Shown: positions 3,654 to 57,451, counted from the first letter of the stretch. The stretch is DNA of 64,000 nucleotides from Euglena gracilis (GCA_039621445.1 CP154954.1:27803735-27867734); one strand, 5' to 3'. The notes: a model not told the origin generated them from the letters alone. Program-made: numbers and translations.

Positions 3654-3655
3654 AG

Positions 3656-3965: not shown

Positions 3966-3977
3966 CAAAATCCCCCG

Positions 3978-4996: not shown

Positions 4997-4998
4997 CT

Positions 4999-9761: not shown

Positions 9762-12700
9762 CGGTGGAGGGGCGAACGGAACCCACCCACCAGTTGCGCA
9801 GCCTACTGGATTTGAGGGTCCGCGGAAGGTTATGGTATTTCACAGCTGACACAGGGCAAGGCGGGAGGGAAATGGGCAAGACCCATGTTCAATATAGCGT
9901 GTGTGTGGGAGGGGTAAGAAGCAGGGCGGATCTAGGGTCACCGGCTGGTGGCCCATGCGGTTTGGTCGGCGGTGTGGTGAGGAGAGGTGGGAGCGTGCCG
10001 AGGTGGGGGGCGGCGGTTGGTGGTTGTCTGTGTTTCTTGCTTGGTTTTCGTCGTTTTTTTTAGGGGCTATAGCCGGCTTGCTGGGTCGCGCGCGCACTTT
10101 CTTCTCACCTTGTGGAGTCCGGGGCGGGCGGGCTACCCTTTGCGTGTGCGTTGCTTTTGCCGGCTCCACTCCCATTTGTTGCCTCGTTGGGCGGATACCT
10201 TTCGCCTGGCGTGTGGGCTCTGTTTTTTTTGGCGGCTTCGTTTTTTTTGTGGTGGGGGGCGTCTTTTGGGGGTGTTGTTCCGTGGTTAATCTCCGCGATT
10301 TGCGGGTTGTGGCCGTCTTGGTCTTGGTCTTGCGCGCTTTTGGTGCTGTCTGCGGTGGGGGTTGGGGACTTACCATGGGTGGAGGGCCTGCTCCACGCGG
10401 TCCCTGGCGGATACCTGCCGCGCAACGTGGCGCATGAGTGTCACCGGTAGTGCTTCCTGCTTTTCTTGCATGGCCCTTGTCTTTGGCCATCCCCGCATGT
10501 CTGCGGTGGCCCTTTTGGTGACCTCAAACAGCACCGCCTGGCAGAGGTCCGAAGGCCTCGTTGCCCCTGTGACCAGTTGATGAGGAGAACATCGGCCGGT
10601 CTGTTGTTCGCCAAACACTCTGCCTCCTTCTCCACCGCAATGTTGTACAGGGCACACATCGCTGCAAAAGCATCTCGGAATGCATTGTGCCGTTCGGTGT
10701 TTCCATTCTGCTCGCAGCAGACGAATGATCCCCGAAGGGGTCAATGGACCTCGACACAGTGGGCACCCCTGCAGCGTGACCCCTGAAGGGAGGATGGACA
10801 GGCCAAGCCACCACTGCAGTAGCAGCCAGTATTGGATGTCCGAGAAAGCTGTGTGCTGTGCCTTTCTGGGCAAAGTCCGTATCCATCCCGTTTCCACCGG
10901 TCCCTTTGGCAAGCCCTTCTCACCCGGTCCCTGGCAAAGCCGACCGCGTCGACTCACTGGCTCTGCATTTCCGCCACTTTCTCCGTCCACCACCGTTGGG
11001 AGGCGTGTTCTGGTGCTGCGGAGAGAGTGGGGTGGTGCCTGCGGGCCAGCTGGCCACGGGATCCACGTTGGGCCAAGCTGTTGATGCAACCGTTGTAGCC
11101 TGTCTTGCATTTCCGGGGATGGGGTTGCCAACACCGAGGCTGGCACCCCCACTGCTTGCCCAGGTTCAACAAGGCCGCCATCCGTGCCGCGGGTTGCAAC
11201 ACGTCGGGGTCCGAGATTCCGAGTCCCCCTTGGCGCGATGGGCAGGGAGACTTGATCCCGTGAACTCTCGGTGATTCCCAGTCCGAGGAGATCTTGTACG
11301 GCTTCCTCCAGCCATGCCCTGAGAATGAGCGGGCAGTCCCGTGCGTTTTCTCTCTCCGTTGATCGGAGGAGGTGGACCACCCGACCTCCGTCCAGGCAGT
11401 ACCGCAAGAGTGCGTGCTGCTTGCCCCTCTGGGTGGCCCCTGAGCCGTTACAGGAGCAAGGTCGCCCTGTCCACGGTCTCTTCCCATACGGCTTGGCATT
11501 GTGGTGCTCTTGGCGTGTCCTCTTGTGCTGTGTGATGCTCCCGCGGGGCATCAATCTGGACGCCCAGGGTCGTGATGCCCCTCTGTCCTCCAAAAGGAAT
11601 CACGGGCACTTGTCTTCCCAAGTGGTCTTCTGCCAAACCGTCTGGGTAATGTGGCCCGGCTTGATAGACTGTTCTGCATCCCAGGTCCCCAAAAATTGCA
11701 CTTGGCCAAATTGAGGTGGAGGCCTAGGGCTAGGCCTAGGCCTAGGACCGTGCTGATGTCATGGAGGCGGGCCAACACCACTGCTGGTTTCCCCACGATG
11801 TGGCCGCCGCCAAAGCGCCAAGTCCCGGGCAAAGCACTGGTCAAGGGCGTAGTCCAAGTCCAGTGCAAATCCCAAGGGCCCGCATGCGTCGCCTTGATGC
11901 ACTCCGATCTGGCTTGTACACAGGAAGCGCCCTTGGCAGAACAACGGACTTGGTCCACTGTAGCAAAAGCGCAGCCAGTTGTACGCCGTGTGTACCTTGG
12001 CCAAGCATCCCCGGAGCATTGCATCCCTGCTGATGAAGTTGAAGGCATTGCACATATCCACCTGCAACACCACGTGGTCGTTATCCCCTTGGAGGTGGCT
12101 TGACTGGACGAGCGTTGCAGGCCCATGCCCACCATCTCGGCGGCGTTTCACACCCACCCCGCACTGCCGCGGTTGTAGGGCTGCCATCAACATCCTCACC
12201 GCTTCAGTATGGTGGAGGCACTTGTCCACCACTCGCCGGAGGGTGTCACCGACGGCAATCGGCCGCACCCCCCATCCTTCTTGCGGAGCAGGATGAGCGT
12301 GGAGGCGCATGGTACTTCTCGCACGCTCTCCGGGATGTGGTCAGGGCCGTCGCAGCAAGCTTGCCAAGGGCTTGGACCAGGCCCCCCCCCGGGCCCCAGC
12401 TTTCGGCAACACTCACTGAGGTGGATTGGACTTAGACCCCGGGGGGAAGGAGACCACGGCTGCCCAGGCCCGCTTGGACCACTGCTCGTCGCTCTCCTCG
12501 TCGTGCATGCCCTCGTCCCCAGGCGGCAGGCAATCGAGGTGGGCAAATCCCCTGACGGGACCAAGTGCGGCTGTGCTGGGGGATGGAGGTCCCTCAGTAC
12601 GGCTTCCATACCCGGTTCCTGCAAGTTGACCAGCGCATCTGACACCAACAGCTTAGCGGCCTTGGGCAGTGCGCCTTCCTCCACCAAAGCCCTGATTTTC

Positions 12701-13907
12701 CCCACCTGTGATGGTGACATTTCCTCTTCCTCCTCCCGCTTGGCCTGTGCCCTTGTGCGCGCCGGTTGGTCCAATGGGGTCTGCCGTGCTTGGGCGTTTT
12801 TTTTTTTCGCCTCGGCCCACAAGGTTCCCAACTGGCCTTGCTGAAAGAGACGCAGCCGTCCGTCCATGTCATGTGCTGCGTGCCGCTGGTGCTTGCATCC
12901 ACCCCGGCCTGATGAACGCAAGACCAGCTTTGGGAAACATATGAGACGGTGGAGCGCCTCCCATGTTGGCACTGGGACTGCCACATCCCTCACTAGATGT
13001 GCCAGCTCCTGGGTGATGGCGGTGCGACACATTGCTGGGATGTGTCTCACTGTGGGCACATGCACGACGAGCACCTCATCAAACGTGGGCGTCATTTGTG
13101 GGCATCGGCTTGTGGTTGGTGTTCCCGTTTGTGGCGCGGCTGCATCCCTCGGGGGGATGAGAGGCACGGGGCCCCGTGTTGCCTCCGCGGTGTCGAGGCT
13201 TTGCGGTGCCACCTTGCAGTTCCTGCATCTCTCGCTTTGGGGCACGAGTGAGCGGAAGGGGCCTGCGCAGACCCGTACCCTCAGCATTTGGAGGACTGCC
13301 GACGGCAACACTTGGCCGTGCGACACATGGTGCGCGGCCAGGAGCGACACCAATGCTTTGCGGGACTTGGTGGTGAGGGCTTCTGGGCACGATGAAAAGG
13401 GACACATGAGGGTTCGTGGTCCCTCTGCTTCTGCTTCTTCCTCATCGTCCTTAGCCGCCGCATCATCCCCTTGCTTTCCTTCGACGTGGCGGCCGAGTGC
13501 CACGGGAACCCGTGGCGTTTCCCTGCTTTCTGCCCCCTTCCCTCCCCTTGGGGGTGTTCTTCTTGGTGGCGCCTTTGGCTTGGGGGTGGTGGTGGCTGTG
13601 CTGCTGCTCGCTGAGGTGCGGAGGTTCACCACGTCCTGGCCCCTTACGAACTCCAAAAGTGCTACACCGGTGTCGTGGCTTACACCCGAACTGTCGCTGC
13701 GATGCCTCTTGTTCCGCAGACAACCAATTGACTCCTCCTCTGTGTTCATGTTCTGGTTGACGACTTGAACTTCTTTCCTTTCCTTGATACTTGTGCTTCA
13801 GGCGACGTTATCTGCAGGATGGGGAAGATGTTCAATGAGCTTGGACCCCACCAGGGGCTTTCAAGACATGGTAGTTGTGCGCCACGAAAGAATAGACAGT
13901 CAGAAAG
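9762..13907 (-). mobile_element. CRE-like non-LTR retrotransposon C, near full length, decayed
   Basis: N-terminal C2H2-like finger (CPFSSC...HHVSH); RT motifs GVRPIAVGDTLRR, QCGVGV, DMCNAFN, GVHQGD; CPLC knuckle; RLE motif RPADVLL; many frameshifts; SL-like 5' end; conserved 3' motif. Confidence 0.9.
13885..13907 (-). other. Spliced-leader exon-like sequence at the 5' end of element C
   Basis: Minus strand CTTTCTGACTGTCTATTCTTTCG, then 15 nt, then ATG 13869, which is in frame with ORF 12196-13749 through two TGA stops. Confidence 0.8.
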
Positions 13908-13937: not shown

Positions 13938-15077
13938 CGGTGGTGGGGCGGACTGAGTCCACCGACCACTGGCACAGCCTACTGGATTTGATTTGTGTTC
14001 AGGGGGTAAGGCTATGTACAGAAGCGACAGTCTGTGCTGGGGACGGGAGATGGGAGGGGAGGGAAAAGGGGAAGAGATGTGAGCTTAGAGAAGGGTGCGA
14101 GGTGGGGCAGCCATTGATCAACAGCCGGAGTAGCTGCCGGGCACAAGGTCCTCAGGTTGTGGTTGAAAATCCTCTGCCACGTGGGTCATCATGCGTCACT
14201 ACGGAGCTCGCGCCTTGTTTACAACGCGGCGGAGATGGAGGTACCGAGAGGAACCTTTCCCAAGCCTTTGGCGGTCATCGGGCAGCCTCTCACCGAAGAG
14301 ATGCGTAGAAAAATGCGGGTAATTGAAGGTGGCCACGACGGGCCTTTGTTCGTGGTGCTTTGGCCATAAGGTTCGCATGGCTTAAGGGGCTGACGTAGGC
14401 GGCATGCTTGCACCTCCCCGTTACTGGACAGAGTAAGGTTGATGAAGGCTTGTTTCACCACCGTCAGCCAGCTCCTCGGGGCACTGTCCCCAAGCAAGCT
14501 GCTTCGCCAGCTCCCTGGCCAGGGCCATGCTCAGGCCCTGCCAACAGTTGGCCTCCGTTGCTCGTCTCTCCCACGAGTCGTGCTGCCCCATGAGTAGACG
14601 TACACATTGGCCAACGAAGGCAAGGGCCGCATCACCCATGCCCTCATAGCAATCCAAGACAAAGGGAATGAACGTCCACCCCTTCGTTGGCAGCCAGCAC
14701 CATACTTCTTGACTTTGTCCTCCTCTTTTGATTCGTGCCATCTGCCAAGGTCCTCTGTCCCAGGTCGTGTTCGGGAGGGTGCTAAGTGGTGGCGTACCGT
14801 CATGTCGATTGCGGCTAGACCATTGGCATCGTACCTCATGACAAAGACATCCCGGGGCCGTGAACCATCAGGGGCAGCTCCCTCTCGTCTCGCTGGGAAC
14901 ACAGCCTTTTGAGCAAGCCCCAAGAGGTAGGATTGTACCGCCCCGTGTCGCCGAACAATATTGTGTCAATGACAACGGACGAGATCCAGGGGATTGTGGC
15001 ACCTTGGGCATCCTGATGGTCCGGCTTTCAGTTGTCCGACATGATATGCGAACAAAAAAACATAGACAGTCAGAAAG
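13938..15077 (-). mobile_element. Internally deleted CRE-like element D (~1.1 kb, non-autonomous)
   Basis: SL-like 5' end and ATG 15042, then almost directly the RLE region (RPRDVFV...AIDMTVRH, KVKKY, LARELAKQL), 3' UTR and conserved 3' motif at 13938-13991. Confidence 0.8.
15049..15077 (-). other. Spliced-leader exon-like sequence at the 5' end of element D
   Basis: Minus strand CTTTCTGACTGTCTATGTTTTTTTGTTCG, then 6 nt, then ATG. Confidence 0.7.
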
Positions 15078-15381
15078 CGACGAATTCCTACGACTTTTCG
15101 ACGACTTTTTACGACGACGTTCTGAGTAAAGGTTTCATCAAAGGGTACACAATTATCTCTCTGGAGCAGAAAAGCTCAAGCTGACATGTCAAATGAAGCC
15201 CCATGCAATGGCTTGGGCATCGGTGATGCCTTCAGCCAGCGCAAGAACCCTCATGCCCCCCAGGGAATTACAGGCCCTGGTCCAGTGGTCCCTGGGTTGG
15301 CTGGAAGTACTATCCCTGTTTCACTGTACTTTGCTGTACCATCTGTGCTGTAACATAGCGATCACTGTTCCAATTTGCACT

Positions 15382-15950
15382 ATGGCCCCAGGGCCTTCTA
15401 AACATTTCAGAGAGGTGGTCCCAGGGCCCCAGACTTTTGCCATGATGCTCCCAGATTCTGCCCCAGGGCTCAACACATTTCAAACCAAATCTGGCACAGA
15501 AAAGTTTTTCAGAGATCTTGCCCCAGGGACCAAGGCCTCAGCCATGATGCTGTCCAATTTTGCCCCAAGGCTCAACACATTTCAAGCCAAAACTGGCACA
15601 GAAAAGTTTTTCACAGATGTGGCCCCAGGGCCCAAGGCTTTTGCCATGATGCTGTCAAATTTTGCCACAGGGCTCAACACTTTTCCAACTAAATCTGGCA
15701 CAGAAAAGTTTTTCAGAGATGTTGCCCCAGGGCCCAAGGCTTCAGCCAACACATTTCAAGCCAAAACTGGCACAGAAAAGTTTTTCACAGATGTGGCCCC
15801 AGGGCCCAAGGCTTCAGCCATGATGCTGTCAAATTTGGCCCCAGGGCTCAACACGTCTCAAGCCAAAACAGGCACGGAAAAGTGTTTCACAGATGTGGCT
15901 CCAGGGCCCAAGGCCGTAATGCCGTCAAATTTTGCCCCAGGGCTCAGCAC
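15382..15950 (+). repeat. In-frame 102-bp (34-aa) tandem repeat, about 5.5 copies
   Basis: CCAGGG(C/A)CC anchors at 15421, 15523, 15625, 15727, 15799 and 15901; unit APGPKAFAMMLSNFAPGLNTFQAKTGTEKFFTDV. Confidence 0.9.
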
Positions 15951-15984
15951 AATTCCAGCCGTAATAGCGTGGGGTTTCCACCTA

Positions 15985-16038
15985 CGGGGAAGAGGCGGGC
16001 TACTGTCGTGTGGCGACGTTGAAGAAAACCCTGGCCCA
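15985..16038 (+). other. 2A/StopGo peptide in element E
   Basis: RGRGGLLSCGDVEENPGP fits the D(V/I)ExNPGP consensus. Confidence 0.9.
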
Positions 16039-18910
16039 CGCACAGGGTAGCCAACGGAGAGAGGCCGCCAAACACGAAGGCAGGATGCTGCTCTTTCACG
16101 ACCGACTGAAAGTGGGACCAACCTGGACCCGGAATTATCGGTGGCCATTGAATTGGATGACCCATTGCCTGCCCTTGCCGCGCCCACGACTGTCCCGGTT
16201 ACAGCAGCGACGGCAGCCATGGAAACAGATGGCCCACCCCAGCCATTTCTGCCGGGCTGCAGAACGCCTGGGACCCCCTTCTCACAACGCTGTCCGACGC
16301 TCGAACCAACCTGGATGGCATCGCACAGGACCTCAGGGGCACGGTCTCACACATCCCTCGTGGCGCCGTACAGGCGGTCTCCCAACTCTACACCTCTCTT
16401 CTGAAGGACTACAACAGACACCCTTCATGGGAGTCCTCACACGCACTCTGGTGCATGCCCAAGGCAGTGCTGGCACCCTTGCCACGCGCTGGCAGGAATC
16501 ACTGGGCTCAGTTGGGAAGGACCATCAGTACAGTACTCTTCAGGGGATGGCACACGGCCCATTGCTGCCGGGGAAACCCTCCGACGCCTGGTGGCAAAAG
16601 TGCTAATGCGCCACACAGAAGTCCGCCGCTCCCTGGCTACCGCCTTGCCACAACAGCTGGGGGTAGGTGTACCGGACGCATGCGCATTGATAAGCATGGG
16701 CATTCAGCAGATAGTTGACGGCCTGTCCCATATCGGGAAGGTTGACTGGGGGTTACTCCAGCTGGATTTCTCAAATGCATTCAATTGCATATCAAGAGAG
16801 AACTTACTGGCCGAGGTCGCCGATAGATGTCCCCTCCCTGCTGCCGTGGTTGGAGAGCTGCTACGCACGCCATTCTCGGTTGTATCTGGGAAAGACATCC
16901 CTCCGAAGCAAGTCTGGTGTGCAGCAAGGGGACCCGTGCGGGCCGGCCGCATTTGCCCTCGGGATACAGCCATTGCTGGACAAACTGCAAGGCATCGTGG
17001 GCTGGCAAGCCTGGTACCTGGATGATGCCCACGTCATGGGCACACCGGAGCAGCTTGAGAGGGCAGTTTGGTTGATTGTATCTGAGGGACCACGGATTGG
17101 TGTAGGTCTCAACTTGGCGAAATGCAGACTGTGTGGTCCAGCCTTTGTGGAGCACGGAGAAGGCATCTTCAGGGCGTCCCGGTCGAGCCTTTCACAGCCG
17201 GCACCGGCATTCGCGCACTCGGCGCGCCTGTTTGCCACCCGGGTGGAACGCCTGAATTTGCCTCCCTCCTTTGGGAGGAGCGCCTCACCGGTGTCCAGAA
17301 GGCGTGCCACCTGTTACAATTGGTGCCGTCACCGCATCTACAATTCACTGTGCTCAGGCAATGCCTTGATGCCTGCAAAGTGAATGATTTGCTGCGAACC
17401 ACGCGCCTCTCGGGAGCTAAAATACAGTGCCATTCCTCCTCCAGCATCCTACGGGACAAAATGTCGGTCATCACCGCCCGCCCAATGGACGACAAACAAT
17501 GGGCACAGGCCTCACTTCCTGTCCGCTTGGGAGGACTGGGGATCCGAGACCCAGAAGCAGCCAGAACACCGGCCAGATGGGCAGCTATCCTGGGTTTCCT
17601 CTCCCGAGTGGACAGCACTCTGGGCCAACCGGAAGGCTGCCCTCAGCTTCCACGCGACCATGGCGAGACGGGCTTGCTAATTTCGAGTCTCACCAAAGGG
17701 TTGGCACCTCTCACTGACATCCTTGCGGACCCAAGCAATGTGAGCTCCTGTCCCCCACAATGACGAGACAGAAGTTTTGGACATATGAGGTCGTAAAAGT
17801 ACGGGCTGACCTACTTTTGGGCAGCTTTGCAGGAAACGACGCAGTCCGTTTTTACCTGCCAGCGGAAGCCACACGCCATGGCCTGGGCTGCGGTTAATCC
17901 CTCTGCTCCACTGAAAACACTCATTCCACCAGCCGAATTTAGAGCGCTGACGCAATGGTCTCTAGGGTGTGCAATTTGCCCGACAATGCCAGATGGTTCC
18001 TTGCCAGAATGCCCTCGTTGCCACCAGCAAATGGACTTTGGCGGAAATCGCCTTGTCTGCTGCCCAAAAAACAACACTTTGCGGCGACATGGTGCCCTTC
18101 AAACGTTTGTCGTGGAGCTTGCAAGGAAGGCGGGATTCATGGCCCGAAGAGAAGAGGTGGCAGACAACCAGACAAGGCTCGGCGATGTCTTCATTACCAG
18201 GGACGATGCTGACGGACCCGCAGCAGTGGATGTCACGGTGCGTCACCCGCTCCAGCCAGCCACTCCGGTCTCCACAAAAGAAGCCGTAGCACGGTGGCAC
18301 GAATTACAGGAAGCCAAAAACGCCGCAAATACGCAGCCACCTGTGAACGCCTTGGGTGGACGTTCATTCATTCATTTGTTCGTTCGTTCGTTCATCCCAT
18401 TCGTGCTGGACTGCTTTGGGGGCGTGGGGGAGCAGGCTGCAACCTTCATCACCAAATGCCTCCGCACTGTATTGGCTCAAACAGGTGTTTTTTCAACGAC
18501 GCTCATCTAAAGCCTCCGTCTGGCAAACCCTGAGTCTCACATTGGCAAGAGAAGTGGCCCGCCAGCTGGCATGCGGTGCGGTGGCGGAGCCATCTGGAGA
18601 GGTGGATCCCACCACCCATAGCCCATATGCAATGGATTGAGCAAAGATGAGATACCAATCTCACATCCCATCCCTCCAAAAAAAAACCGCAAGCACACAC
18701 AAAACACACACACACACACACACACCAGCCACCACGCCCTCCGCCTCTCACCCCCAACGCACCTCATCCGCCAAGTTTCCCCTCGTCCCTCCGTCTTCGC
18801 TGCTACCAAGACCGCTCGGCTTTACACGCCTTCTCCTGTACCTCTACCTCTGACAGACTGCTGCTTCCGCTTCTGTATATAGCACTCACCCTGAGCACTC
18901 AAATCCAGTA

Positions 18911-19138
18911 AACCCCCCCCCAAATAACCCCCCCCCCCCGGTTTGTTATTTGGGCACCCGAACTGAGGCCCCAGGGGGGGGGGGTGTTATTTGGGGGGGT
19001 GTTATTTTTACATGGAAAACCAAAGGAAAACAGGGGGGGGGGTGTTATTTGGGCGCTCGAAATCGGCCCCCGAGGGGGGGGGGTGTTATTTGGGGGGGGG
19101 GGTTATTTGGGGGGGGGGGGGGTGTTTGGGGGGGGTTT
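18911..19138. mobile_element. G/C-tract-rich MITE with TA target duplication
   Basis: Interrupts the conserved CCAGTA|GGCTGTG motif, with TA at 18909-10 and 19139-40; AACCCCCCCCCAAA...TTTGGGGGGGGTT termini. Confidence 0.8.
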
Positions 19139-19245
19139 TAGGCTGTGCCACTAGTCGGTGGACTCGGCTCGCCCCACCACCGTGTCCTTCTCCAGTGAGA
19201 AGAAGGCTGCAAGTCGTCTTTTTTTTTCCACATGAGACAAAAGTA

Positions 19246-22200
19246 CTGTGGTGGGGCGAACCGAATCCACCGACCAGTGGCACAGCCTACTGGATTTGAG
19301 TGTTCCGAGGAGACAGGGGCTATGGACAGATGGGGGAACCCCATGGATAGGCAGAGGTATCGACTGTCGCAGGGCTCAGCGGGTGGAAAACGGGCAAGGC
19401 CCATCTTCATTATAAAGTATAAAGCGCAGGGGGATGACAGGGTGAGGAGGTTCGCGGTGCGTGGGAGAAAGTGGGTGAGGAGGCGGTTGAATGGCAGGGA
19501 GGTTAAGGTGCCCGCGGGCAGCGGCAGTAGAGGCTTGTGCCTGTAGCGTTGAACCGTATTGTCCGTGTTCTGGGAGCAGTGGCTGCTTCGTAGGCTGTCT
19601 TGGTGCGCCCTCTGTGCCGGGAATGCCGGTAGCGGATGAATGCCTTTGTGTATCGTTTGCGCCGATGGCCTCGCCCTTTGGGCGGCCATCTGCGTCGTGC
19701 CTTGTCCTGATCTTTTGTCGGAGGTAGATGAGCCGCCGGTGAAGACGTGTAGTGGCCAGCCGGGGTCAGCCGGGTCGAGGTCCGTGTTGCTGGTATCGCT
19801 GTCAGATGTTAGATAGTGAATCAGCGAAGCACATACTTCGGTCGTAGCAACTGAGTGATCTGCTTGAACAGGGCCCATGCCAAGCTCTGGTAGCTCTCAG
19901 CCTGCCGCGTCAAACGCACGTCGCCTTGATCCCAGGAGGTCGATCGTTCGATCAGTCTTGTCAGCAGCTTGGCGCTCTCCGGGCCCAGGCCTCCCCATGT
20001 CCCAAATGCCAGCGTGGCAAAGGACCAGCCCCCGTTTCGGCACAATATGTAGTACTTGGCGTGCTTTGCGGTCTCCTTCCGTCTGAGGAAGGTTCTCCAT
20101 CGTTCCCTGGACGCTGTCCTCTCAGCAGACTGCCAGCCGTGTGCAACCGCGATGTCTACCGCGGTCGGTTTCCCGTCTTGCCATGTTGCCAGCAACAGGT
20201 CCGCTGGTCGCAGGGAGGCGTCTGGCTGGTTTGGTACTGGCACCTCGCGTTGGACACTCTGGCCGTTCGCGGACAGGAGGTTGAATAAGGCTTCCTGAAC
20301 GGCGTTGTGTCGGCTTGCAAAGTTGTTCCGAATGCAGCACATGTCGTGATCCCCGTGGATGTCTGCCACAGAATGGCACCCCGCGCACGTGGTTGGCGTG
20401 TCAGCCAGGGGCAGCCCAAGCCACCACTTCAGGCCAAGGCAGTAGTCGGCGGGCTCAATCACCGTGTGCAGAGCCTCATTGGGGGCTGCTGCCATCCAGC
20501 CGTGGCCGATACCGTTGAGCTGTTCCATAAGACGTGTCTGGTCCCTTGCAGACCACGTGGCGATGAGGGCGTCCACATGGGCCTTGGATAGTTGGGTCTG
20601 CCACCATTTCTGCGAGGTGTCATTTGCCGATGCAGAGGCGAAGGCTGCTGATGCTGTCAGCCGGTTGCTCTCAGGGTGACGGGTGCCGAGGACGGAGCCA
20701 AGGTCACTGGCGGCTTGCTGGCAGAGCCGGTCGTCCGGGCGGCCGCGTAGCTTGGACATGCGACCCGCTTATGTCCATGTGTGTAGAACTGGCACAGGGC
20801 GGCGGTACGGGCTGCTGCTTGGTGGGAGGCGGGAATACGAAGGCCACACCCACCTTGTGACAGCGGTAGCGAGGCCTGCAGGCTGTGGTCTGTGCTGAGG
20901 GCTTGGCCGATGATGTCCTCAAAGGCACCGAAGATCGTCTCACTGCACCGAATCACTTCACCCTGCGCCTGGTAGGGATCAGAGGCGCGCAGGAGGTGGT
21001 TAACTCTGCAGCCGTCCAGTCAAGACCTCAGGATGTGGTGCGCCAGCTGGGGGTCAGTGACCGAGGTGACTAGGTCCGCAGCCTGTTCCAGCTTGGTTGT
21101 TGCCTCCGTCCATGCTGCCACTGTGTGCCCTGCCGTGGTTGGGAAGTCGACGGGGCAGCCCAGGACAGTGATCCCAGAGCCCTCGACCCAGGGTACAACT
21201 TGAACCTTCTCGCGGTCAGGGAGTGCGCCAGCAGCCGGACCCCATACGACGCATTTCGCCGGGTTCAATTGGACCCCGTTGCGTGCGCCTTCGGTCCGCA
21301 GGAACTCGAGGCACTTCTGCAAAGCCCAGGGCTCACCGACAAGCACCCCATCATCCAGGTACCATGAGGACCAGAGCAACTCTGCTTGCTGGCTGATGGT
21401 CTCGCTGATGGTGTGGAGGCCCACTGCAAAGCCGATGGGTCCCAGGGGGCAACCCTGGTGTGTGCCTCTCGTGGAGTGGAGCACGCGTCCTCCGCTGAAC
21501 AACGGTGCCGGCTGGCCGTAGGCGAAGCGCAGGTAGTTGAAAAGCGCTGGAGTGCGCGTTTGCGCTTCTTGTAGAAGGACATTTCTGTCCGGTGTGTTGA
21601 AGGCGTTCTTCAGGTCCACCTGAAGAATGGCCCAGTTCCCCTGCGGATCCAGTTTCCGGACCAGACTTGGGTTGCCATGGCGACGGATTCGGACGCATTG
21701 GGGACCCCAACCCCTACCTGCAGGGGACTCAGCCGGCCCACTTAGTCCTTGGCGGCGCCGGTGTGTAGGAGGGCTTTCCCAACCAATCGCCGAAGGGGAA
21801 TCGCGCTTACCTGCCGTGACTCCCCGGTGCACCGTGGACCACATTATTATCAACCTGGTGGACAACTCCCCTATTGCCGAGCGCCCACCAAGACGGGCCG
21901 ATGGGAGCCTCTTGTCCTGCGGGGACATTGAAAGCAACCCAGGTCCGCCGGGAGGCAGAAAGAGGTCAGCCACGTCGGTTGTCGTGTCCGCGGAGGCGCC
22001 TCGTGACAGCACAAAACGATTTAGCACACCCAGCTGACGACACACCCGCGGCTGTGGTGGTCGACCAAAGCGGAAAGAACTCTGACCTCCGTCACGGTGG
22101 CCCGCCCGGAATCACCATCCCGCCCCAGCCGGCCAACCTCCAGGAGGTCTTCCTCTGCCGCGCAAACACGGTCCTTCATGTGCCTGCGGCCAACCAACGT

Positions 22201-22780
22201 GACGTGTCCGAGACCCTCTCCAATGTCATAGAGGAATACGTCAGCAGGCCAACCATGGACAGCCTGTTCGCCACCCTCGCCTTCCCCAAACTGGTGCTTC
22301 GGACAGTCCAAAGTGCGGGGCGTGAGGCCGATGAGGACATCTCCACCGCGATCAGGCGGCGCGTCCAACTGTTCCGGCAAGGGGACAATGGAACGCTGAT
22401 GACAGCGCTGAGAAGCGCCACCCGCCTCCCACCAGCGTCCATCGAGACGCGGGCAGCCAAAAGAGCACGCACCGAGCCCGCCGCCATACCGGCCGCTGTT
22501 CTCCGCCGTGCCCGCACGTTGGTGGGGGAAGGGGCCCCTGCGAAGGCCCTGCAAGTTCTCTTGTTCGAAGGAACCCACCGCTCTTCCGATCCGGCTGTCT
22601 GGGTCAAACTGCAGGAGTTGCATCCCGCTGGACGCCCAGTAAGCCTCAATGCGCTGCCCGGCGAAGTACCACCGTTCCCGGATGGTAAACAGGTGCGGTG
22701 GAAGGAGCTCCTCAGGGACGCAATACTCCGTTTCCCTCGGACCTCCTCGCCGGGCCCTTCTGGTTTGCGCCCTTGCGCCT
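19246..22780 (-). mobile_element. CRE-like element F with an inverted 5' segment
   Basis: Minus strand 19246-~21750: VDLKNAFN, GTHQGCPLGP, WYLDDG, CAGC-H-C knuckle, RPADLLL, KHAKY, 3' motif. Plus strand ~21750-22780: 2A motif and N-terminal region up to SSPGPSGLRP. Confidence 0.9.
21921..21947 (+). other. 2A/StopGo core in element F (copy at 49065-49091)
   Basis: GSLLSCGDIESNPGP; the duplicate reads TGRGSLLSCGDIESNPGP. Confidence 0.9.
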
Positions 22781-22848
22781 TGCCGCCTTATTTTTTTTGG
22801 ATTACTCTGGTGTGCTGGGTTAGGCCGAAGTCCTGTGCGGGTGAGAGT

Positions 22849-47293: not shown

Positions 47294-49994
47294 GATGTCT
47301 ACCGCGGTCGGTTTCCCGTCTTGCCATGTTGCCAGCAACAGGTCCGCTGGTCGCAGGGAGGCGTCTGGCTGGTTTGGTACTGGCACCTCGCGTTGGACAC
47401 TCTGGCCGTTCGCGGACAGGAGGTTGAATAAGGCTTCCTGAACGGCGTTGTGTCGGCTTGCAAAGTTGTTCCGAATGCAGCACATGTCGTGATCCCCGTG
47501 GATGTCTGCCACAGAATGGCACCCCGCGCACGTGGTTGGCGTGTCAGCCAGGGGCAGCCCAAGGCACCACTTTAGGCCAAGGCAGTAGTCGGCGGGCTCA
47601 ATCACCGTGTGCGGAGCCTCATTGGGGGCTGCTGCCATCCAGCCGTGGCCGATACCGTTGAGCTGATCCATAAGACGTGTCTGGTCCCTTGCAGACCACG
47701 TGGCGATGAGGGCGTCCACATGGGCCTTGGATAGTTGGGTCTGCCACCATTTCTGCGAGGTGTCATTTGCCGATGCAGAGGCGAAGGCTGCTGATGCTGT
47801 CAGCCGGTTGCTCTCAGGGTGACGGGTGCCGAGGACGGAGCCAAGGTCACTGGCGGCTTGCTGGCAGAGCCGGTCGTCCGGGGCGGCCGCGTAGCTTGGA
47901 CATGCGACCCGCTTATGTCCATGTGTGTAGAACTGGCACAGGGCGGCGGTACGGGCTGCTGCTTGGTGGGAGGCGGGAATACGAAGGCCACACCCACCTT
48001 GTGACAGCGGTAGCGAGGCCTGCAGGCGGTGGTCTGTGCTGAGGGCTTGGCCGATGATGTCCTTAAAGGCACCGAAGATCGTCTCACTGCACCGAATCAC
48101 TTCACCCTGCGCCTGGTAGGGATCAGAGGCGCGCAGGAGGTGGTTAACTCTGCAGCCGTCCAGTCAAGACCTCAGGATGTGGTGCGCCAGCTGGGGGTCA
48201 GTGACCGAGGTGACTAGGTCCGCAGCCTGTTCCAGCTTGGTTGTTGCCTCCGTCCATGCTGCCACTGTGTGCCCTGCCGTGGTTGGGAAGTCGACGGGGC
48301 AGCCCAGGACAGTGATCCCAGAGCCCTCGACCCAGGGTACAACTTGAACCTTCTCGCGGTCAGGGAGTGCGCCAGCAGCCGGACCCCATACGACGCATTT
48401 CGCCGGGTTCAATTGGACCCCGTTGCGTGCGCCTTCGGTCCGCAGGAACTCGAGGCACTTCTGCAAAGCCCAGGGCTCACCGACAAGCACCCCATCATCC
48501 AGGTACCATGAGGACCAGAGCAACTCTGCTTGCTGGCTGATGGTCTCGCTGATGGTGTGGAGGCCCACTGCAAAGCCGATGGGTCCCAGGGGGCAACCCT
48601 GGTGTGTGCCTCTCGTGGAGTGGAGCACGCGTCCTCCGCTGAACAACGGTGCCGGCTGGCCGTAGGCGAAGCGCAGGTAGTTGAAAAGCGCTGGAGTGCG
48701 CGTTTGCACTTCTTGTAGAAGGACATTTCTGTCCGGTGTGTTGAAGGCGTTCTTCAGGTCCACCTGAAGAATGGCCCAGTTCCCCTGCGGATCCAGTTTC
48801 CGGACCAGACTTTGGGTTGCCATGGCGACGGATTCGGACGCATTGGGGACCCCAACCCCTACCTGCAGGGGACTCAGCCGGCCCACTTAGTCCTTGGCGG
48901 CGCCGGTGTGTAGGAGGGCTTTCCCAACCAATCGCCGAAGGGGAATCGCGCTTACCTGCCGTGACTCCCCGGTGCACCGTGGACCACATTATTATCAACC
49001 TGGTGGACAACTCCCCTATTGCCGAGCGCCCACCAAGACGGGCCGAGGGAGCCTCTTGTCCTGCGGGGACATTGAAAGCAACCCAGGTCCGCCGGGAGGC
49101 AGAAAGAGGTCAGCCACGTCGGTTGTCGTGTCCGCGGAGGCGCCTCGTGACAGCACAAAACGATTTAGCACACCCAGCTGACGACACACCCATGGCTGTG
49201 GTGGTCGACCAAAGCGGAAAGAACTCTGACCTCCGTCACGGTGGCCCGCCCGGAATCACCATCCCGCCCCAGCCGGCCAACCTCCAGGAGGTCTTCCTCT
49301 GCCGCGCAAACACGGTCCTTCATGTGCCTGCGGCCAACCAACGTGACGTGTCCGAGACCCTCTCCAATGTCATAGAGGAATACGTCAGCAGGCCAACCAT
49401 GGACAGCCTGTTCGCCACCCTCGCCTTCCTCAAACTGGTGCTTCGGACAGTCCAAAGTGCGGGGCGTGAGGCCGATGAGGACATCTCCACCGCGATCAGG
49501 CGGCGCGTCCAACTGTTCCGGCAAGGGGACAATGGAACGCTGATGACAGAGCTGAGAAACGCCACCCGTCTCCCACCAGCGTCCATCGAGACGCGGGCAG
49601 CCAAAAGAGCACGCACCGAGCCCGCCGCCATACCGGCCGCTGTTCTCCGCCGTGCCTGCACGTTGGTGGGGGAAGGGGCCCCTGCGAAGGCCCTGCAAGT
49701 TCTCTTGTTCGAAGGAACCCACCGCTCTTCCGATCCGGCTGTCTGGGTGAAACTGCAGGAGTTGCATCCCGCTGGACGCCCAGTAAGCCTTGATGCGCTG
49801 CCCGGCGAAGTACCACCGTTCCCAGATGGTAAACAGGTGCGGTGGAAGGAGCTCCTCAGGGACGCAATACTCCGTTTCCCTCGGACCTCCTCGCCGGGCC
49901 CTTCTGGTTTGCGCCCTTGCGCCTTGCCGCCTTATTTTTTTTTTGGATTACTCTGGTGTGCTGGGTTAGGCCGAAGTCCTGTGCAGGTGAGAGT
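47294..49994. repeat. Direct duplicate of 20151-22848 (part of element F plus the 3' tip of G)
   Basis: Near-identical, including the F inversion junction; scattered SNPs and indels. Confidence 0.95.
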
Positions 49995-51571
49995 AATGCA
50001 CATACCAAGTTCTCAAGGAGGGAGGGGGGGAGAATCGAGGGTGAGGTGAAGGGCGGTGAAGGGCACAGTACGGAGGGGGGATTGCGAGTGTGAGAGGAAA
50101 GTGTACAGCGGCTGGGAAGGTTTAATAGAACGGCCATGGAGACTGTTGAGTGTTGAGGTTGTGGCAGCGACAAGTTTAGGTTTTGGGGAGTTGGCTCAGG
50201 GAAGGCTCTGTTTTCAGTGCGGTAAGGGTTTGGACGTCATTGTAGACTTGGTCCATTCGTTGCAAGGTGTTTTTTGCTTGTTTTTTGGTTTAATTGGTCT
50301 TGTGGTTAGTTATGCGTACGGTTGGCGTGTCATGGAGCCTTCGGCCCTGTGGTCAAATTGCTCACTCCGTTTCATATGGGCAATGGGTGGTGGGTTACAC
50401 CGTTCCAGATGGCTCCGCCACAGTTCCCCAAGCCTCAGGCGGGCCAGTTCTCTTGCCAATGTCTGACACAGGTTGCTGATGGTTGGGTACCTTTGTTTAC
50501 TTTTTTGACAAGTTGTGGATGGTTTAAGGACAATTTTTTGTTCTGGGTCTAGGAGTCGTAGTGGTCTTCTTTACAGACAATACGGCTGGTGTATGGTGTT
50601 GGTTACTTCTGGATCTGTGTCGTTGCCTGCATACCGTCCCCAGATTACTTGTCGCGCGATCTCTCGCGCAACAGTTATTGATAGAAGTTGCCATGTGTCT
50701 GCTTCAGTTTTGCGTTTTGACCATGCATCTTGTTGACCGAGGAGAAGTTTCATCAGTGTTGACATTAAGGATAGCGCTTCTTGGCCTAGGCTGCCATAGC
50801 AGTCAACAACAAATGGAAGGCAGGTCCATCCCATCCTCCCACAGGTGGCGTCATATTTTGAATGTTTTTCTTTCTCTTGGCGTTCATACCATTCAGTTAG
50901 TTCAGCTGTGTCACGCAACGGTCTGTACGGTGCTGCTGTGTGTCTCACTGTGATGTCCACTGCTCCAGGACCATTGGCGTCAAGTCTGCTGATGAGGACA
51001 TCGCCCGGGCGTGTTCTCTCTGGACCTCCTTGTTCTTTTTTTTGCTGTAAACCCAGCATCATGTGCCAGTTGGAACACAAAGTCCTGGATTGCACCATGT
51101 CGCCGCGTGATGCCACTTGAGCTGCAGCATACAAGGTGATTACCCAGGTTGACCATTGGCTTGGTGCAGCGTGGGCACGTTGATCCCGTTGGTGGGCAAA
51201 CTGGTGCTCCCAGTGACCACTTTAGAAATCCTTTGAATTCGGCAGAAGCGACCAATGTTTTCAGTCCACAGGATGGTGTGACAGAAGCCCAGGCCATTGC
51301 GTGGGGCCGCTGTTGGCTTGCGAACCGGACGGCGTCTTGACCGTGAAGGTTGGAGGATAATACCTTTTGTCGTTGTTTCGCAAAGCATTCACCCCACCAC
51401 TTCTGTTGAATGTGAGGGCTTTGGGCTTCGTTCAGGAGTGATACATCCGCGGCCCATGTTTGCGTTGGGGGAGTTCCTTCGAGGACGGAGTTGGCAGAGG
51501 ACAGGCACTCCGCAGTGTCTTTCGGTACTCCTCTGCCAGGCCCAGGGTGCGTCTGCCATTGCTGACAAACG

Positions 51572-53137
51572 TCACAATGCCGGATATACGTGCTGGGAGA
51601 CGTTCCCGTGATGGGTCCCGAATTCCGAGTCCGCCGAGGGTAGGGTGGCCTGAGCCCATTGGTTGTCATCGATTGGGGATCCAACAATGTTGCTCATTGT
51701 GTTCCTGATTTCTTTGGTCAACAGAGCACATGCGTCATTTGCCTGCCCCAGTTCTGTTGCACGCAGGAGGTCATTAACTTTGCAAGCATCTAGGCAGGTT
51801 CGTAAGAGGCAGAACTGAATATGGGCTTGCGGCAGGTTCAAAAGTGCCCGGCAAGCTTTCTGCACACCTGTTGCACGTTCAGCCCACACTTCCCCCGCAA
51901 AGCCTCCACTTTGTGGATGGCATACCGGGATTCCCAGGGCCCGTATACCAGAATTAGGAGAGTAGTTCACGATTGGGACTGCACGAAGTGGGCTGTTTTG
52001 CGGCATTTCAGCACGATTGGCTTCTGTTGCTGCAGGGCCCCACAGGCGGCATTTTTTTGCGTTGAGGTGTATGCCTAGTAGCGTCCCCTGTCGTTGAATT
52101 TCTGTAATTGCTGCATGTAATTGTGGGAGGGTTCCCAGGATGTGTCCATCATCCAAATACCACAATTGCAGTGGCACCACGTCTTGCAAGGACTCGACGA
52201 GAGATTGCAACGCCAAGGCGAATCCGGCTGGGCCACAAGGGTCCCCTTGTTGTACGCCAGAGGCACTCCGAAGGTGTGATGACCCACAAAAGAGCGGGCT
52301 GTGTTCGACGTAGCAACTCTCGAACCAAACGTACGCCTCCGGGCAGCGTTTAGCCACTTCAGCAACGACTGTCTTTCTTTTCACACAATTAAAAGCATTG
52401 CTGAAATCTACCTGTAACAAAGCCCAGGTGTTGTCCTGTTGCATGTGCAGGTGATTCACTTCTTGCTGCAGTCCCATAGCAATGAGTTCACATGCCCCCT
52501 GGACCCCTACACCGCATTGTAGTGGCTGCAGTTCTTTAAGGAGGTCCCTGATTTTGGGGTGCCTCATCAAATATTTGCCCACCAATCGGCGCAGGCATTC
52601 CCCAGCTGCAATTGGTCGCGTGCCATCCTTCTTTGGGTCAGGAATGGGGTTGGCATTGCCAAGCTCATCAAGGTTTTCGCTTGGATTGCAGGGTTTTCGA
52701 AGAGGAGTCAAACGGGCACCAGCGAAAACCCATGCCGCAGAGTTGTGAATTCCGTTTGTCAAACATGTTCGGACGAATTGGTCCAAAATTGTGAGGAGTT
52801 GTTCTGATTGTGTCCCCAGGAGATCAGAGAGTATGTCTTTAAGATGATCTGGACGAAGTCCAGACGGTCCTGGTGAGGACTCCTTCGGGAAAGACATGAC
52901 TGCTTTCCGTATTTCAATTAGGCGCTCCCTGGTTGCATCTTCACTGAGATCGAATTCGAGGCGAGGGAAGTCCGGAGGCAGATTTTGCCTTCCAGGTTGG
53001 GGTTCAGGAGGGTGCAAGGCAGCCAACCGTTCCAAGATTAGCGGGTCATCTGCATCTTGGATTCCATCAGAAGTTGGCATGCGGCAGGCTTTACTGACCG
53101 CTCCATGGCTGACAAGGCTTTGAACACGGTTGCACAA
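51572..53137 (-). pseudogene. Reverse transcriptase domain of G1
   Basis: SSPGPSGLR, GTRPIAAGECLRRLV, QCGVGV, VDFSNAFN, GVQQGDPCGP, WYLDDG, LNAKKC. Confidence 0.95.
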
Positions 53138-53939
53138 TCTTTATTGGCTTTCTGCATCGAATTTTTTTGTCTGACTTCGTGTTCTCTTCTTTGGGTTTTG
53201 TGCATCGCGAATTTGGCGAGTCTCATCCCACGAAGCTTCTGTGAACCGGTTGAGGTAGGCATTGGCTCCCTCAGAAATTTTCTGTCCAACTGCAGCCCAA
53301 TGGCTTTTCCCGCTCCGCTTCAGTGGAGCCAGCACAGCTTTTGGGAAGCACCAAAGTGTGTGTAGGGTTTCCTATCCTGGTTTTGATACAAAGCGACTGA
53401 GGGTGCTGCAAAAGGCGAGCCCAACGTTTCGCAACGCTCCCCGTGGGATATGGACCAACGTGCCTCGCGTGTCTTGGGAAATTTCTTCCCAAGATGGCTG
53501 CAGTGGTGGGCAAGGTTGCGAGAAGGGAGTGACTTGCAGCGTATCAGCGTTCGTCGAGGATTGCGCTGGTGCTACAGCCACGGGGTGCTGCGGCCTTCGA
53601 CCACTTTGGCACTGTTGCTCTTGCCCTTGTGGTGAGGACGGCACAAAATTCTCAATCATCCCCTGGCCCTGCGGCGCACACCCGTGAATTTCGGAAATCG
53701 CTGAGCGCACCCGGGACTCTAGTTCGTCAATTACCATGATTTGTTCAGCTGCGGGTGCCCCGGGGCCCCCGTTCAAACTGGGAAACGGCATTATAGCCTG
53801 GGACAAAGTAGGCGAGAACAGCGGCGTCGAGTGCATTGGAAACCAAGATCCAAGGAGCGGTAGCTCCGTCAGCCACAGCAGAGGTCTGTGCGGCTGAGGC
53901 CATTTCAACGTCCTCCTGCTGGGGAGGGCGGGTTTTTGT

Positions 53940-55302
53940 GGGACCTGGGTTGCTTTCAATGTCGCCACAACTGGCAAGGCTTTTGCCCCTGCCACACCAG
54001 GGGGGACTGTACCCATACCGCGTTTTTTCCTGGTCAATCGGTTGCCGTAAGTGGTTGGCGTGCCCTGGGGCCACATTAGACAACTTAGAAGGCCCTGGGG
54101 CCATAGTGCAAGTCGGTCGTCGGCAATGGGGCCGGGTGCTAGGTCGCAGGGATAGGGGTCCTTCACGTGGGGTTATCCGGTGAATAGGTCCTGGCTCAAG
54201 CTGAACGTCACCACAAAGTGTGACATCTTGGTGTGTGGGCCTCTCGGTTTTGACAGCGTGGTTAGGGCTTATGTCACCTTGTTGGTCACCGCGTTGGCAG
54301 TTTGGTTGTCTTTGTGCTGTCCGTCGTGCCCTCCGGACGTGACGGTCAACAAAAAAACTGCTGATCTTGTCGGACGTAACAAGGCCATGATGTCCAGGAT
54401 ATCAACGGTGTGTACATTCAATGGGGAGAGGTCGGACGAGGAGGGCTCCGTTGGAGGTACTTTGGGGAAAGTGCTCTCGGCCAGAGAACGTTGGGTAGTG
54501 TCATTTGGTGAATGGGGGGCAGGTAGAAATGAAAAGCCTCGCCGATGTTGCATACTTCGGACCATAAACAAGTCAGCAACCACATAATGGCATGCACACT
54601 CGATGGGGAGTCGTGACGTGGTGGTCGATGTGGCCATAGCCCTATGAGCACAAACAGAACTCCTCTCAAAACTTCCCAACATTCGGTGAGCTCATAGACG
54701 GTAGTGTCCTGAACCAGGACATCGGAAGGGAAGGCGTCTCGGAACGTTTGAAGTTCTGCATCCACCTCTTGAAGGCTCGCCAGCAGTCTGTGCCGAACGA
54801 AGTTTTCTTGAAGTCCCCTGGAGACAGGGATTGTCGGTCTTTCCATGGTGGCCAGACGGAAGTAGATGGGTCCTGGTTGTGTTTGGACGTCACCATGGGT
54901 GGTGATTCGTTCCCCCCTACTTGTCGGCTGGTGTCCTTCTGAAAACTTTTCCCGGGTTTGTTCTACGGTGTATCCTCGGCTTGTTACAGAGTGTACTTTT
55001 GCTGTCTCAGTAGATGGAAATACTGTGGCTGAAAAAACAGGGCAGGTTTCCCTGTGGTGCAGGCACCAACCTGCCGAGGCAGTGATGGTTTCAATGTCAC
55101 ACAAAGTGCATTTCAGCCAGTATGTAGCTTTGGGAAGAAGTGTACGGGAGGAGCCATCGGGGCCTTGCCGCAATGGTATTTCGGCCTTGATCCGAAAGAA
55201 AGCAGTCATGTTCATGGCAACAAGTTGGTCCAATAGATCCATGACTTCACCACAGGGTCCATCAAATGCCGTCGGCGGGCCTGGATTGGTTTCCACATCA
55301 CC
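53940..55302 (-). other. Four 2A-like motifs in G1
   Basis: GDVETNPGP 55276-55302; GDVQTQPGP 54868-54894; GDVQLEPGP 54186-54212; GDIESNPGP 53940-53966. Confidence 0.85.
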
Positions 55303-57343: not shown

Positions 57344-57368
57344 CGAAAAAAAATAGACACTCAGAAAG
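57344..57368 (-). other. Euglenid spliced-leader exon copy at the 5' end of G1
   Basis: CTTTCTGAGTGTCTATTTTTTTTCG matches 25 of the 26 nt of the Euglena gracilis SL as I recall it; followed by TCTGCATAATCACC-ATG, not by an SL-RNA intron. Confidence 0.9.
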
Positions 57369-57451
57369 CCTTATGAGTGTCTTATGAGAATTTTTTTTTG
57401 GAAATTGGAACTCTCCGACCTGTCTTCAGCGGCCTAGGAGGATCACTCCGA

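Follow-up and report, generated by a model that had tools for sequence, protein, structure and literature searches.

T2A-like motifs ahead of the reverse transcriptase in predicted RLE-type retrotransposons of Euglena gracilis

We analysed a stretch of 64,000 nucleotides from Euglena gracilis (GCA_039621445.1, CP154954.1:27803735-27867734), referred to here as the window. It holds copies of four related elements, labelled E, F, G and C, with sequences for a reverse transcriptase (RT) and a restriction-like endonuclease (RLE). E, F and G carry short peptide motifs of the 2A (StopGo) type upstream of the RT, and these motifs, their surroundings and their counterparts in database relatives are the subject of this report. 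A first-pass annotation, made from the sequence alone, had noted a T2A-like peptide in each of these three elements and proposed that it frees the RT-RLE protein from the product encoded ahead of it.

Elements and 2A-type motifs in the window

In a six-frame scan of the window, the tetrapeptide NPGP occurred eight times, and in seven cases it lay within the full core D(V/I)ExNPGP. From the residue frequencies of the six-frame translation, 0.00018 matches to D[VI]E.NPGP would be expected, and 200 block shuffles of the window gave none. Because F and G are each duplicated, these are four distinct canonical sites in three elements and not seven independent events. In self-comparison, the F duplication (20151-22848 and 47294-49994) is 99.1 per cent identical and the two G copies are 96 per cent identical. 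Every peptide that the first-pass annotation had listed was recovered in its place (Table 1), the duplicate in F with one extra T. Their position just before the conserved pre-RT region also held, with gaps of about 37-124 codons (~65 in E, ~37 in F, and ~124 and ~67 in copies 1 and 2 of G), using tblastn and hidden Markov model coordinates. Missing from that annotation was the arrangement of G, which has four 2A-type motifs in series, the two middle ones found by a looser scan.

Viral StopGo peptides have been described with an expanded core, (D/G/C/N)(V/I)ExNPGP, and with an upstream class that is L-rich and ends in (A/S/C)G (the parts of PMC12846837 available to us). The expanded core is satisfied by the same seven instances at four distinct sites, and the DVQTQPGP and DVQLEPGP of G fall outside it. 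Judged by eye, the upstream hexapeptides GLLSCG (E) and SLLSCG (F) are like the LLLLSG class, and SLASCG and SLTTMG (G) are less so. The peptides of the window are new in sequence and belong to a class already known, the T2A-like one. The suggestion that they might be new natural 2A variants stands for the sequences and falls for the class.

The Pfam domain RVT_1 is present in E, F, G and C. A profile built from 20 relatives (database proteins are numbered P0001 and onwards) matched the R2 proteins 9nl3_A and 9dou_A at E ~1e-28 from the RT through the RLE; it also matched LINE-1 ORF2p RTs. Y.DD is kept. A single-sequence PDB search with P0003 gave 0 hits. The RLE residues (CxxC..H..C, RH, E, RPxD, D, K) are kept in P0001, P0002, P0015, P0019, P0024, P0123 and G copy 2. 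Most of them persist in the window copies overall, with partial decay of the corresponding columns in E, G copy 1 and C. For an apurinic/apyrimidinic endonuclease (APE; Exo_endo_phos) there was no hit at E<=0.001 in the 20 relatives and none at E<=0.01 in the window open reading frames (ORFs), a result that a very divergent APE could still escape. By this domain content, E, F and G are RLE-type (R2-superfamily) retrotransposons without long terminal repeats (non-LTR).

Identity over the RT-RLE profile is 46 per cent between E and G and 31 per cent between either of them and F, so calling them three divergent families is fair. With the G RT frame (51575-53140, minus strand) as query, 139 of 7,999 candidates that were scored proved to be relatives at E<=0.001, long proteins among them. 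When cluster representatives were searched exhaustively, 8,915 reached E<=0.001, and 535 reached E<=1e-30. Among those listed, the named relatives are all distant, at 27-32 per cent identity (Symbiodinium, Ephydatia, Helianthus).

Every window copy is damaged between the 2A and the RT. In E, a stop codon (16048-16050) follows three codons past NPGP, the counterpart of P0001 residues 935-1141 is missing, and there are several frame changes. The E leader upstream of the 2A had no Pfam family match, and its repeats appear in self-comparison as 15405-15854 against 15507-15950. In F, the 2A and the pre-RT domain are in different frames. The switch lies at ~22000-22018 and is common to both copies, and among the indels listed from mapped contigs none falls at that place (~49145-49162 in copy 2). 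The two pieces of F stand head to head with their junction within 21844-21880, the plus-strand piece corresponding to P0121 residues 58 to ~385. One insertion that underwent 5' inversion through twin priming would be expected to have this geometry, although a pair of separate insertions might have it too.

In G copy 1, the lack of 2 nt at 53873 takes the pre-RT domain out of the 2A frame. These 2 nt are present in G copy 2, which is without 170 nt found in copy 1 at 53638-53807. We mapped contigs of two DNA runs (X1 and X2) onto 47200-56900 at >=90 per cent likeness. The 2 nt are present in other genomic copies (5802.5/5802.5 of the depth in X1, 4210.8/4652.1 in X2), and no joint skipping the 170 nt is among those listed from either run; both lesions are therefore private. 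With neither of them, the 2A frame of G is open right into the pre-RT frame. On this reconstruction, the G sites were in frame in recent ancestry. Indel variants at 51036 and 51531, with half or more of the X1 depth, correspond to frame changes of G copy 1. More than 4,100 contigs per DNA run were placed on 47200-56900; the families are very abundant in the genome.

The layout of G runs from a leader of ~265 codons through 2A-1, 136 codons, motif 2, ~227 codons, motif 3, 82 codons and 2A-4 to ~1,120 codons of pre-RT, RT and RLE. The 136-codon module between 2A-1 and motif 2 has a KCxxCD zinc-finger-like stretch. The estimated total of ~1,848 codons compares with 1,849 residues in P0001; the start and the module sizes are estimates for a 5' part that changes frame. 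The stretch 55335-54730 of G, which starts at the GRGDSLTTMGDVETNPGP motif and extends through motif 2, is aligned by residues 125-233 of P0001 and by residues 190-372 of P0002. This motif, unlisted in the first-pass annotation, is therefore the first 2A of G.

The fourth element, C, has no 2A-type motif in its 533-codon N-terminal frame. The C2H2-like finger that had been ascribed to it is a Cys2-His2-like stretch, CPFSSCPEALTTKSRKALVSLLAAHHVSH, recognised by reading the sequence, for which Pfam called no zinc finger.

Table 1. Positions of the retrotransposon copies, 2A-type motifs and spliced-leader sequences in the window.
Feature	Position	Strand	Sequence or remark
E leader	15382..15984	+	ATG (MAPGPSK...), then ~five 34-residue tandem repeats (...APGPKASAMMLSNFAPGLNTFQAKTGTEKFFTDV...)
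E motif	15985-16038	+	RGRGGLLSCGDVEENPGP; canonical 2A-type
E pre-RT, RT and RLE remnants	16314..18568	+	three frames; YLDD and RLE motifs recognisable
F copy 1, minus-strand piece	19842..21843	-	RT and RLE; P0121 residues ~408-822 and beyond
F copy 1, plus-strand piece	21881..22848	+	2A motif and pre-RT domain; P0121 residues 58-363
F copy 1 motif	21897-21947	+	...ADGSLLSCGDIESNPGP; extra T at 21902 alters the upstream half
F copy 2, minus-strand RT-RLE piece	47294..48988	-	ends at duplication boundary 47294; in-frame stop 48164-48166
F copy 2, plus-strand piece	49026..49994	+	2A motif GRGSLLSCGDIESNPGP and pre-RT domain
F copy 2 motif	49041-49091	+	GRGSLLSCGDIESNPGP; canonical
G copy 1	49970..56246	-	~6.3 kb; pre-RT/RT ORF 51575-53140; RLE 50580-51053; probable start M near 56125
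G copy 2	57452..63526	-	96% identical to copy 1; four motifs
G first motif (2A-1)	55276-55329 (copy 1), 62551-62604 (copy 2)	-	GRGDSLTTMGDVETNPGP; canonical
G degenerate motif 2	54868-54921 (copy 1), 62142-62195 (copy 2)	-	...HGDVQTQPGP; looser scan
G degenerate motif 3	54186-54239 (copy 1), 61462-61515 (copy 2)	-	...CGDVQLEPGP; looser scan
G last motif (2A-4)	53940-53993 (copy 1), 61216-61269 (copy 2)	-	GRGKSLASCGDIESNPGP
C, related RT-RLE element	10403..13797	-	no 2A-type motif
Spliced-leader copy	57344..57369	-	25/26 bases; ATG 14 nt on opens a 255-codon frame (57329-56565)
Degenerate spliced leader	15053..15078	-	3 mismatches in 24; ~43 nt upstream of an RLE-only fragment (15010-14427, -)

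E and G also have in common an exact stretch of 27 bases, TTGCACTATGGCCCCAGGGCCTTCTAA (..CTMAPGPSK), at 15375-15401 (plus strand) and 54085-54111 (minus strand); at 61361-61387 (minus strand) it has 2 mismatches. It covers the presumed start codon of E and lies between motif 3 and 2A-4 in G. A related repeat, APGP..SN.APG, occurs as one unit in G and about five in E. The 27-mer had no match in metagenome contigs.

Relatives, cargo and the RT tree

We pooled 267 fetched proteins from the searches for relatives, the first of which listed at least 120. Canonical motifs number 38 and occur in 22 of the 267, every one N-terminal to the start of the pre-RT domain. Since each protein is a single ORF, all 38 motifs share their frame with the RT; in relatives with intact ORFs the motif is thus in frame throughout, and the outcome that the first-pass annotation had named as a refutation, a motif out of frame with the RT in intact copies, did not occur. 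Four canonical sites are found in P0019 and three each in P0001, P0002 and P0024. The gap from the last motif to the pre-RT domain has a median of 101 residues and is at most 160 in 18/22, and the product past the last motif measures 996-1205 residues in 16/22. No relatives of P0024 were found in metagenome contigs.

The longer the N-terminal extension, the more often a protein has a motif: 0/15 below 30 residues, then 1/55, 6/56 and 6/19, and 9/13 at 600 residues or more. Many of the apparent absences are therefore probably truncated ORFs.

P0121 is the closest relative of F, with identities of 56 per cent (plus-strand piece) and 62-67 per cent (minus-strand piece). Its HRGRGSLLTCGDVESNPGP, at residue 76, shares a frame with its YxDD, at residue 569. 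Between families, N-terminal regions match each other only across an 18-25-residue stretch at the 2A, at 60-83 per cent identity, and we counted this confinement of similarity as a likely mark of selection on the motif. GRG stands within 12 residues upstream in 23/38 of the relatives' motifs, as GRG(S/D/A)xLL(S/T)(C/H)GD(V/I)ExNPGP, and 7/38 have W..DLT.DG as the upstream part. The 2A tail of one cargo profile (A2) aligns to ...EGRGSLLTCGDVEENPG, the C-terminus of the PDB construct chain 7p2p_B. We take this tail to be T2A, by the T2A sequence quoted in the first-pass annotation.

The cargo ahead of the RT includes an SLBP-type RNA-binding domain upstream of the first 2A of P0001 (Pfam, E 2e-13). 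Untrimmed clustering of the cargo was dominated by the 2A tails, and segments between 2A sites were compared all-against-all with these tails trimmed. This comparison gave a conserved module in P0001, P0002, P0017, P0024, P0123, P0131, P0133, P0137 and P0205, with 35-50 per cent identity over 110-260 residues. The module is Dam-like and occurs in 9/22 relatives with a canonical 2A, usually directly ahead of the last one. NPPF is invariant in it, and 7/9 members match Pfam Dam (PF05869; best E 7e-9). In a structural model (mean pLDDT 71), the best Foldseek matches were adenosine methyltransferases at E ~5e-3, a weak match with none at E<=0.001. The module is absent from E, F and G, where the window matches only the 2A tail of the profile. 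The relatives suggest a genuine non-LTR carrier of a Dam-like module. A conserved site that releases RT-RLE from variable N-terminal cargo had been envisaged for these elements; the site is indeed in frame in the relatives, and the cargo is more than just variable, as the NPPF module recurs in 9/22 and the modules of G stand in series with further 2A-type motifs between them.

For the phylogeny, we aligned RTs over profile columns 200-620 and kept the 229 rows with >=70 per cent coverage, which left out C (69.5 per cent). Rows were labelled '2A', or 'no 2A' if an N-terminal extension of at least 100 residues had no canonical core; another 138 rows had N-termini too short to label and were dropped. 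The labelled tree has 91 rows, 25 with 2A (20 from databases and five from the window) and 66 without. For the minus-strand pieces of F, the 2A label presumes that the two pieces of F make up one element. The tree was a quick search under LG+G4 with no outgroup.

The presence of 2A, mapped onto this tree, is clustered. The label requires 10 changes, compared with a mean of 22.2 after shuffling, and 0/500 shuffles were as low. Within one clade of 29 rows (SH-like approximate likelihood ratio test 94) fall 22 of the 25 2A rows. E, both G copies, P0001 and P0002 form a clade with 100 per cent support; F and P0121 group with 98 per cent support inside an 11-row clade in which all rows have 2A. Outside the 2A-rich clade, the motif is found only in P0056, P0100 and P0115, whose upstream residues differ. 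The nearest relatives of C (P0018 and P0021, 51 per cent) have no 2A and belong to a sub-lineage mostly without the motif. Because 22/25 rows are in one clade and E, F and G have the signature GRGxLLxCGD(V/I)ExNPGP in common, the motif appears to be largely inherited within that clade, with losses or decay and a few separate occurrences. Gain is not separable from loss on a tree without an outgroup. Of the idea that the peptide recurs in three divergent families, the divergence thus holds and the independent recurrence does not.

The StopGo reading and its alternatives

We consider it likely that the motifs are StopGo (2A, 'ribosome skipping') sites of a single-ORF, RLE-type clade whose copy number in a euglenid genome is very high. 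A functional element would be translated as one long ORF, with the chain released after the glycine of ...D(V/I)ExNPG and translation resuming at the proline that follows. The last site, a few tens to ~160 codons ahead of the pre-RT domain, would free an RT-RLE protein of ~1000-1200 residues. Earlier sites would split the upstream part into separate accessory proteins, which in relatives would comprise SLBP-type RNA-binding, zinc-finger-like and Dam-like adenine methyltransferase modules. The window copies (E, both of F and both of G) are dead, each having a stop, an indel or a deletion between 2A and RT. Actual skipping at these sites, and a role of the released modules in retrotransposition, are what we infer from the sequence.

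Several points weigh against this reading. The continuous ORF between modules seen in the 22 relatives is found in 0/5 window copies, none of which has an uninterrupted frame from 2A to RT. Motifs 2 and 3 of G are probably inactive, with E changed to Q and N to Q or E at reportedly critical positions. In the 29-row clade, seven rows have no canonical motif. Calls of absence are soft because gene-caller starts sit inside the motif (P0012, P0017, P0136), and the database relatives are contig ORFs only. Contigs from the RNA-type runs X15 and X20 are short and 90-99 per cent alike, and do not demonstrate transcription of the window copies. Finally, most retrotransposon 2A-like peptides tested lowered protein abundance and did not skip cleanly, according to the available part of one preprint (10.64898/2026.06.17.732966), and only 43/580 RT-associated 2A peptides were highly active in what is available of another (10.64898/2026.09.24.754024).

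These assays bear on the possibility that the motifs are translational attenuators: stalling at NPGP would cut the yield of RT-RLE downstream (the 'reduction' phenotype) and keep the RT dose low, with separation secondary. In the first preprint, as far as available, the reduced-abundance class makes up 59 per cent of the ORF2p-associated and 70 per cent of the ORF1p-associated 2A-like peptides tested (10.64898/2026.06.17.732966), and the portion of the second that we could consult puts RT-associated peptides mostly in the middle of the activity range (10.64898/2026.09.24.754024). Motifs in series would compound the loss of yield. Their position at module boundaries and the constant size of the product past the last motif (996-1205 in 16/22) fit separation better than attenuation alone, and we think it rather unlikely that attenuation is the main role, although the two are not mutually exclusive.

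The decay in the window also bears on a reading of the motifs as inert relics, in which a 2A segment was taken a single time from an RNA virus, or was born by chance and carried along, or else as artefacts of chimeric contigs in databases. Every window copy is a pseudogene, two G motifs have decayed, and the relatives are assembled contigs, all of which would suit relics. We nevertheless regard this as very unlikely, given that the core is conserved across families at 31-46 per cent RT identity whose flanks cannot be aligned, and that 38 canonical cores stand in 22 independent ORFs. The serial layout of P0001, P0002 and P0015 recurs in the G copies of the genome and so is no assembly artefact.

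N-terminal 2A-like sequences that double as signal sequences have been described (PMC4981915, in the part available), and in some relatives the motif is ~10-80 residues from the predicted start, which could mean targeting (dual targeting) instead of StopGo. This seems extremely unlikely here: the motifs are internal, after modules of 100-700 residues, in G, P0001, P0002, P0015, P0019 and P0024, and where an N-terminus is very short it appears to have been truncated by the gene caller (MDGDIESNPGP, MTCGDVEANPGP).

Beyond the StopGo reading itself, we tentatively propose a wider picture, which is plausible without being the safer bet. An RLE-type clade that is abundant in euglenids and occurs in other eukaryote contigs would use a virus-like polyprotein strategy with 2-4 T2A-like sites per ORF. 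Its accessory products would include an SLBP-type RNA binder that could take the place of ORF1p, along with zinc-finger and Dam-like adenine methyltransferase modules. The clade would have had its 2A from the outset, and through the Dam-like cargo the 'LINE-like' DAM elements of Euglena gracilis would be explained as genuine non-LTR elements rather than chimeras.

Retrotransposon 2A/StopGo sequences have been linked to APE-type LINEs since 2006-2013, and wider glimpses came only in 2026 preprints, without clade-level anatomy. Heras et al., in 2006, are also said to have described 2A-like sites in APE-type non-LTR retrotransposons. The portion of PMC3708506 (Odon et al. 2013) that we could consult gives such sites for L1Tc and ingi of trypanosomes and for Rex1, Crack, L2, L2A and CR1 of metazoans, all APE-type, places 2A only in APE-type clades, and treats the RLE clades (CRE, NeSL, R2, Hero, R4) as an ancient single-ORF group. 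As in the elements here, the APE-type sites have ...GD(V/I)ExNPGP in the N-terminal part of the RT ORF, upstream of the enzymatic domains and often in a single-ORF element, and are proposed to release upstream functions as a separate product. Unlike these, APE-type elements have an N-terminal APE and as a rule one site, whereas the present ones are RLE-type, with no APE detected and up to four sites.

Class A viral StopGo of the T2A type (EGRGSLLTCGDVEENPGP) has the same core and the GRGSLLTCG upstream signature, and 23/38 of the relatives' motifs have the GRG. The window motifs differ in lying in a retrotransposon and not in an RNA-virus polyprotein, and in their upstream variants LLSCG, SLASCG and SLTTMG. 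The viral DLTxDG class (PMC12846837, available part) is resembled by the W..DLT.DG motifs of 7/38 in the same RT clade. With R2, R4, CRE/SLACS/CZAR, NeSL and HERO, the elements share a single ORF with RT, linker, CCHC and a PD-(D/E)xK-type endonuclease. In contrast, no 28S or spliced-leader-gene target was seen in the window and the flanks differ between copies, and the R2-type zinc-finger/Myb N-terminus is replaced by long cargo punctuated by 2A.

Two preprints report, in the parts available, 2A-like peptides in many 'non-LTR-like' RT contigs, in Dualen/RandI of Haematococcus and in Symbiodinium ORF2p (10.64898/2026.06.17.732966; 10.64898/2026.09.24.754024). Like the elements here, Dualen/RandI and the Symbiodinium ORF2p-like proteins are protist or algal non-LTR RTs with 2A-like peptides ahead of the core and unusual cargo, in their case a deubiquitinase (10.64898/2026.06.17.732966). 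Dualen, unlike them, has APE plus RLE; hosts and cargo differ, and its description, as far as available, does not include serial sites or Dam-like cargo.

DAM (PF05869) domains in eukaryotic retrotransposons have been classed as DIRS or LTR-type; the RTs of the Euglena gracilis DAM elements branch with LINE/L1-like RTs, and these elements were treated as possible chimeras or artefacts (10.64898/2026.05.21.726589, available part). Those retrotransposons and the relatives described here both encode a prokaryote-like adenine methyltransferase domain; here it is found in RLE-type non-LTR ORFs, bounded by 2A sites, and in relatives only. The word 'peptide' is absent from the available text of that preprint (10.64898/2026.05.21.726589). 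Up to three 2A instances per eukaryotic gene have been reported, with Excavata cases mostly from Trypanosoma and Perkinsela (PMC12338488, as far as available). Our literature search, supplements lying outside its scope, found no paper joining 'restriction-like endonuclease' with 2A terms, and among its ten best-matching papers for Euglena and 2A none mentioned Euglena.

The present analysis puts the motif in the RLE-type branch, the older one among non-LTR elements, where it stands in series and between modules and is apparently inherited within a clade. If the StopGo reading is right, this would be a concrete example of picorna-like polyprotein organisation in a cellular mobile element, and would provide natural T2A-like variants from Euglena, a host in want of multigene expression tools. 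A connection between 2A processing and the methyltransferase cargo of retrotransposons also becomes open to testing. Should the sites attenuate rather than separate, they would be a natural system for the newly described attenuating behaviour.

Spliced leader, host and the remainder of the window

The spliced leader of E. gracilis is ACTTTCTGAGTGTCTATTTTTTTTCG (PMC6242988, available part), and two copies of it lie in the window (Table 1). The better one is not followed by GT, and the 255-codon frame behind it (56565-57329, minus strand) is Q/S/P-rich. The sequences upstream of the two copies are unrelated. Both look like reverse-transcribed trans-spliced RNAs rather than spliced-leader genes, and the fragment at 14427-15010 with its degenerate leader may have arisen by reverse transcription of an element RNA that had been trans-spliced at an internal site or had an internal deletion. 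At 57370-57400 (minus strand), just upstream of the 25/26 leader, the sequence ..AAAAAAAAATTCTCATAAGACACTCATAAGG resembles a degenerate reverse complement of the leader, giving a head-to-head pair.

The leader-bearing segment of 1.1 kb (57369-56247) adjoins the 5' boundary common to the G copies (56246 and 63526). It is absent from copy 2, and contigs cover it as deeply as they cover G. Frames upstream of G gave no hits against the 267 relatives. The dinoflagellate spliced leader had 0 matches in the window at <=3 mismatches, a tRNA scan of the window found nothing, and an Rfam scan of it likewise found nothing, including no SL RNA or 5S gene.

The elements had been taken for euglenozoan CRE elements. 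The Euglena leader (25/26) indicates a euglenid host, which therefore supports 'euglenozoan'; with this match, a dinoflagellate host was rejected. The CRE hallmark, insertion into spliced-leader genes, was not seen in the window: the 25/26 leader is uninterrupted and without GT, and its flanks are unlike those of the second relic. The 3' flanks also differ between the G copies.

Between the duplicated copies of F, a tandem array occupies 22849-47291 (plus strand), with five units of 5.1-6.5 kb that are 87-98 per cent alike. Its frames reach 470 codons, have a W-rich tail end (..DWWGWDWHLNPWNSWWWFPPHQWWW) and match no Pfam family. Pfam scans of 28 further ORFs of the window, among them those of the tandem array and of the stretch upstream of G, yielded nothing informative beyond two gag-like zinc knuckles. 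The first part of the window (1-7710) is a large imperfect inverted repeat (4-884 against 7710-6851, 79 per cent identity), and its arms hold gag-like frames with one CCHC zinc knuckle each (3-2126 on the minus strand and 6937-7641 on the plus strand).

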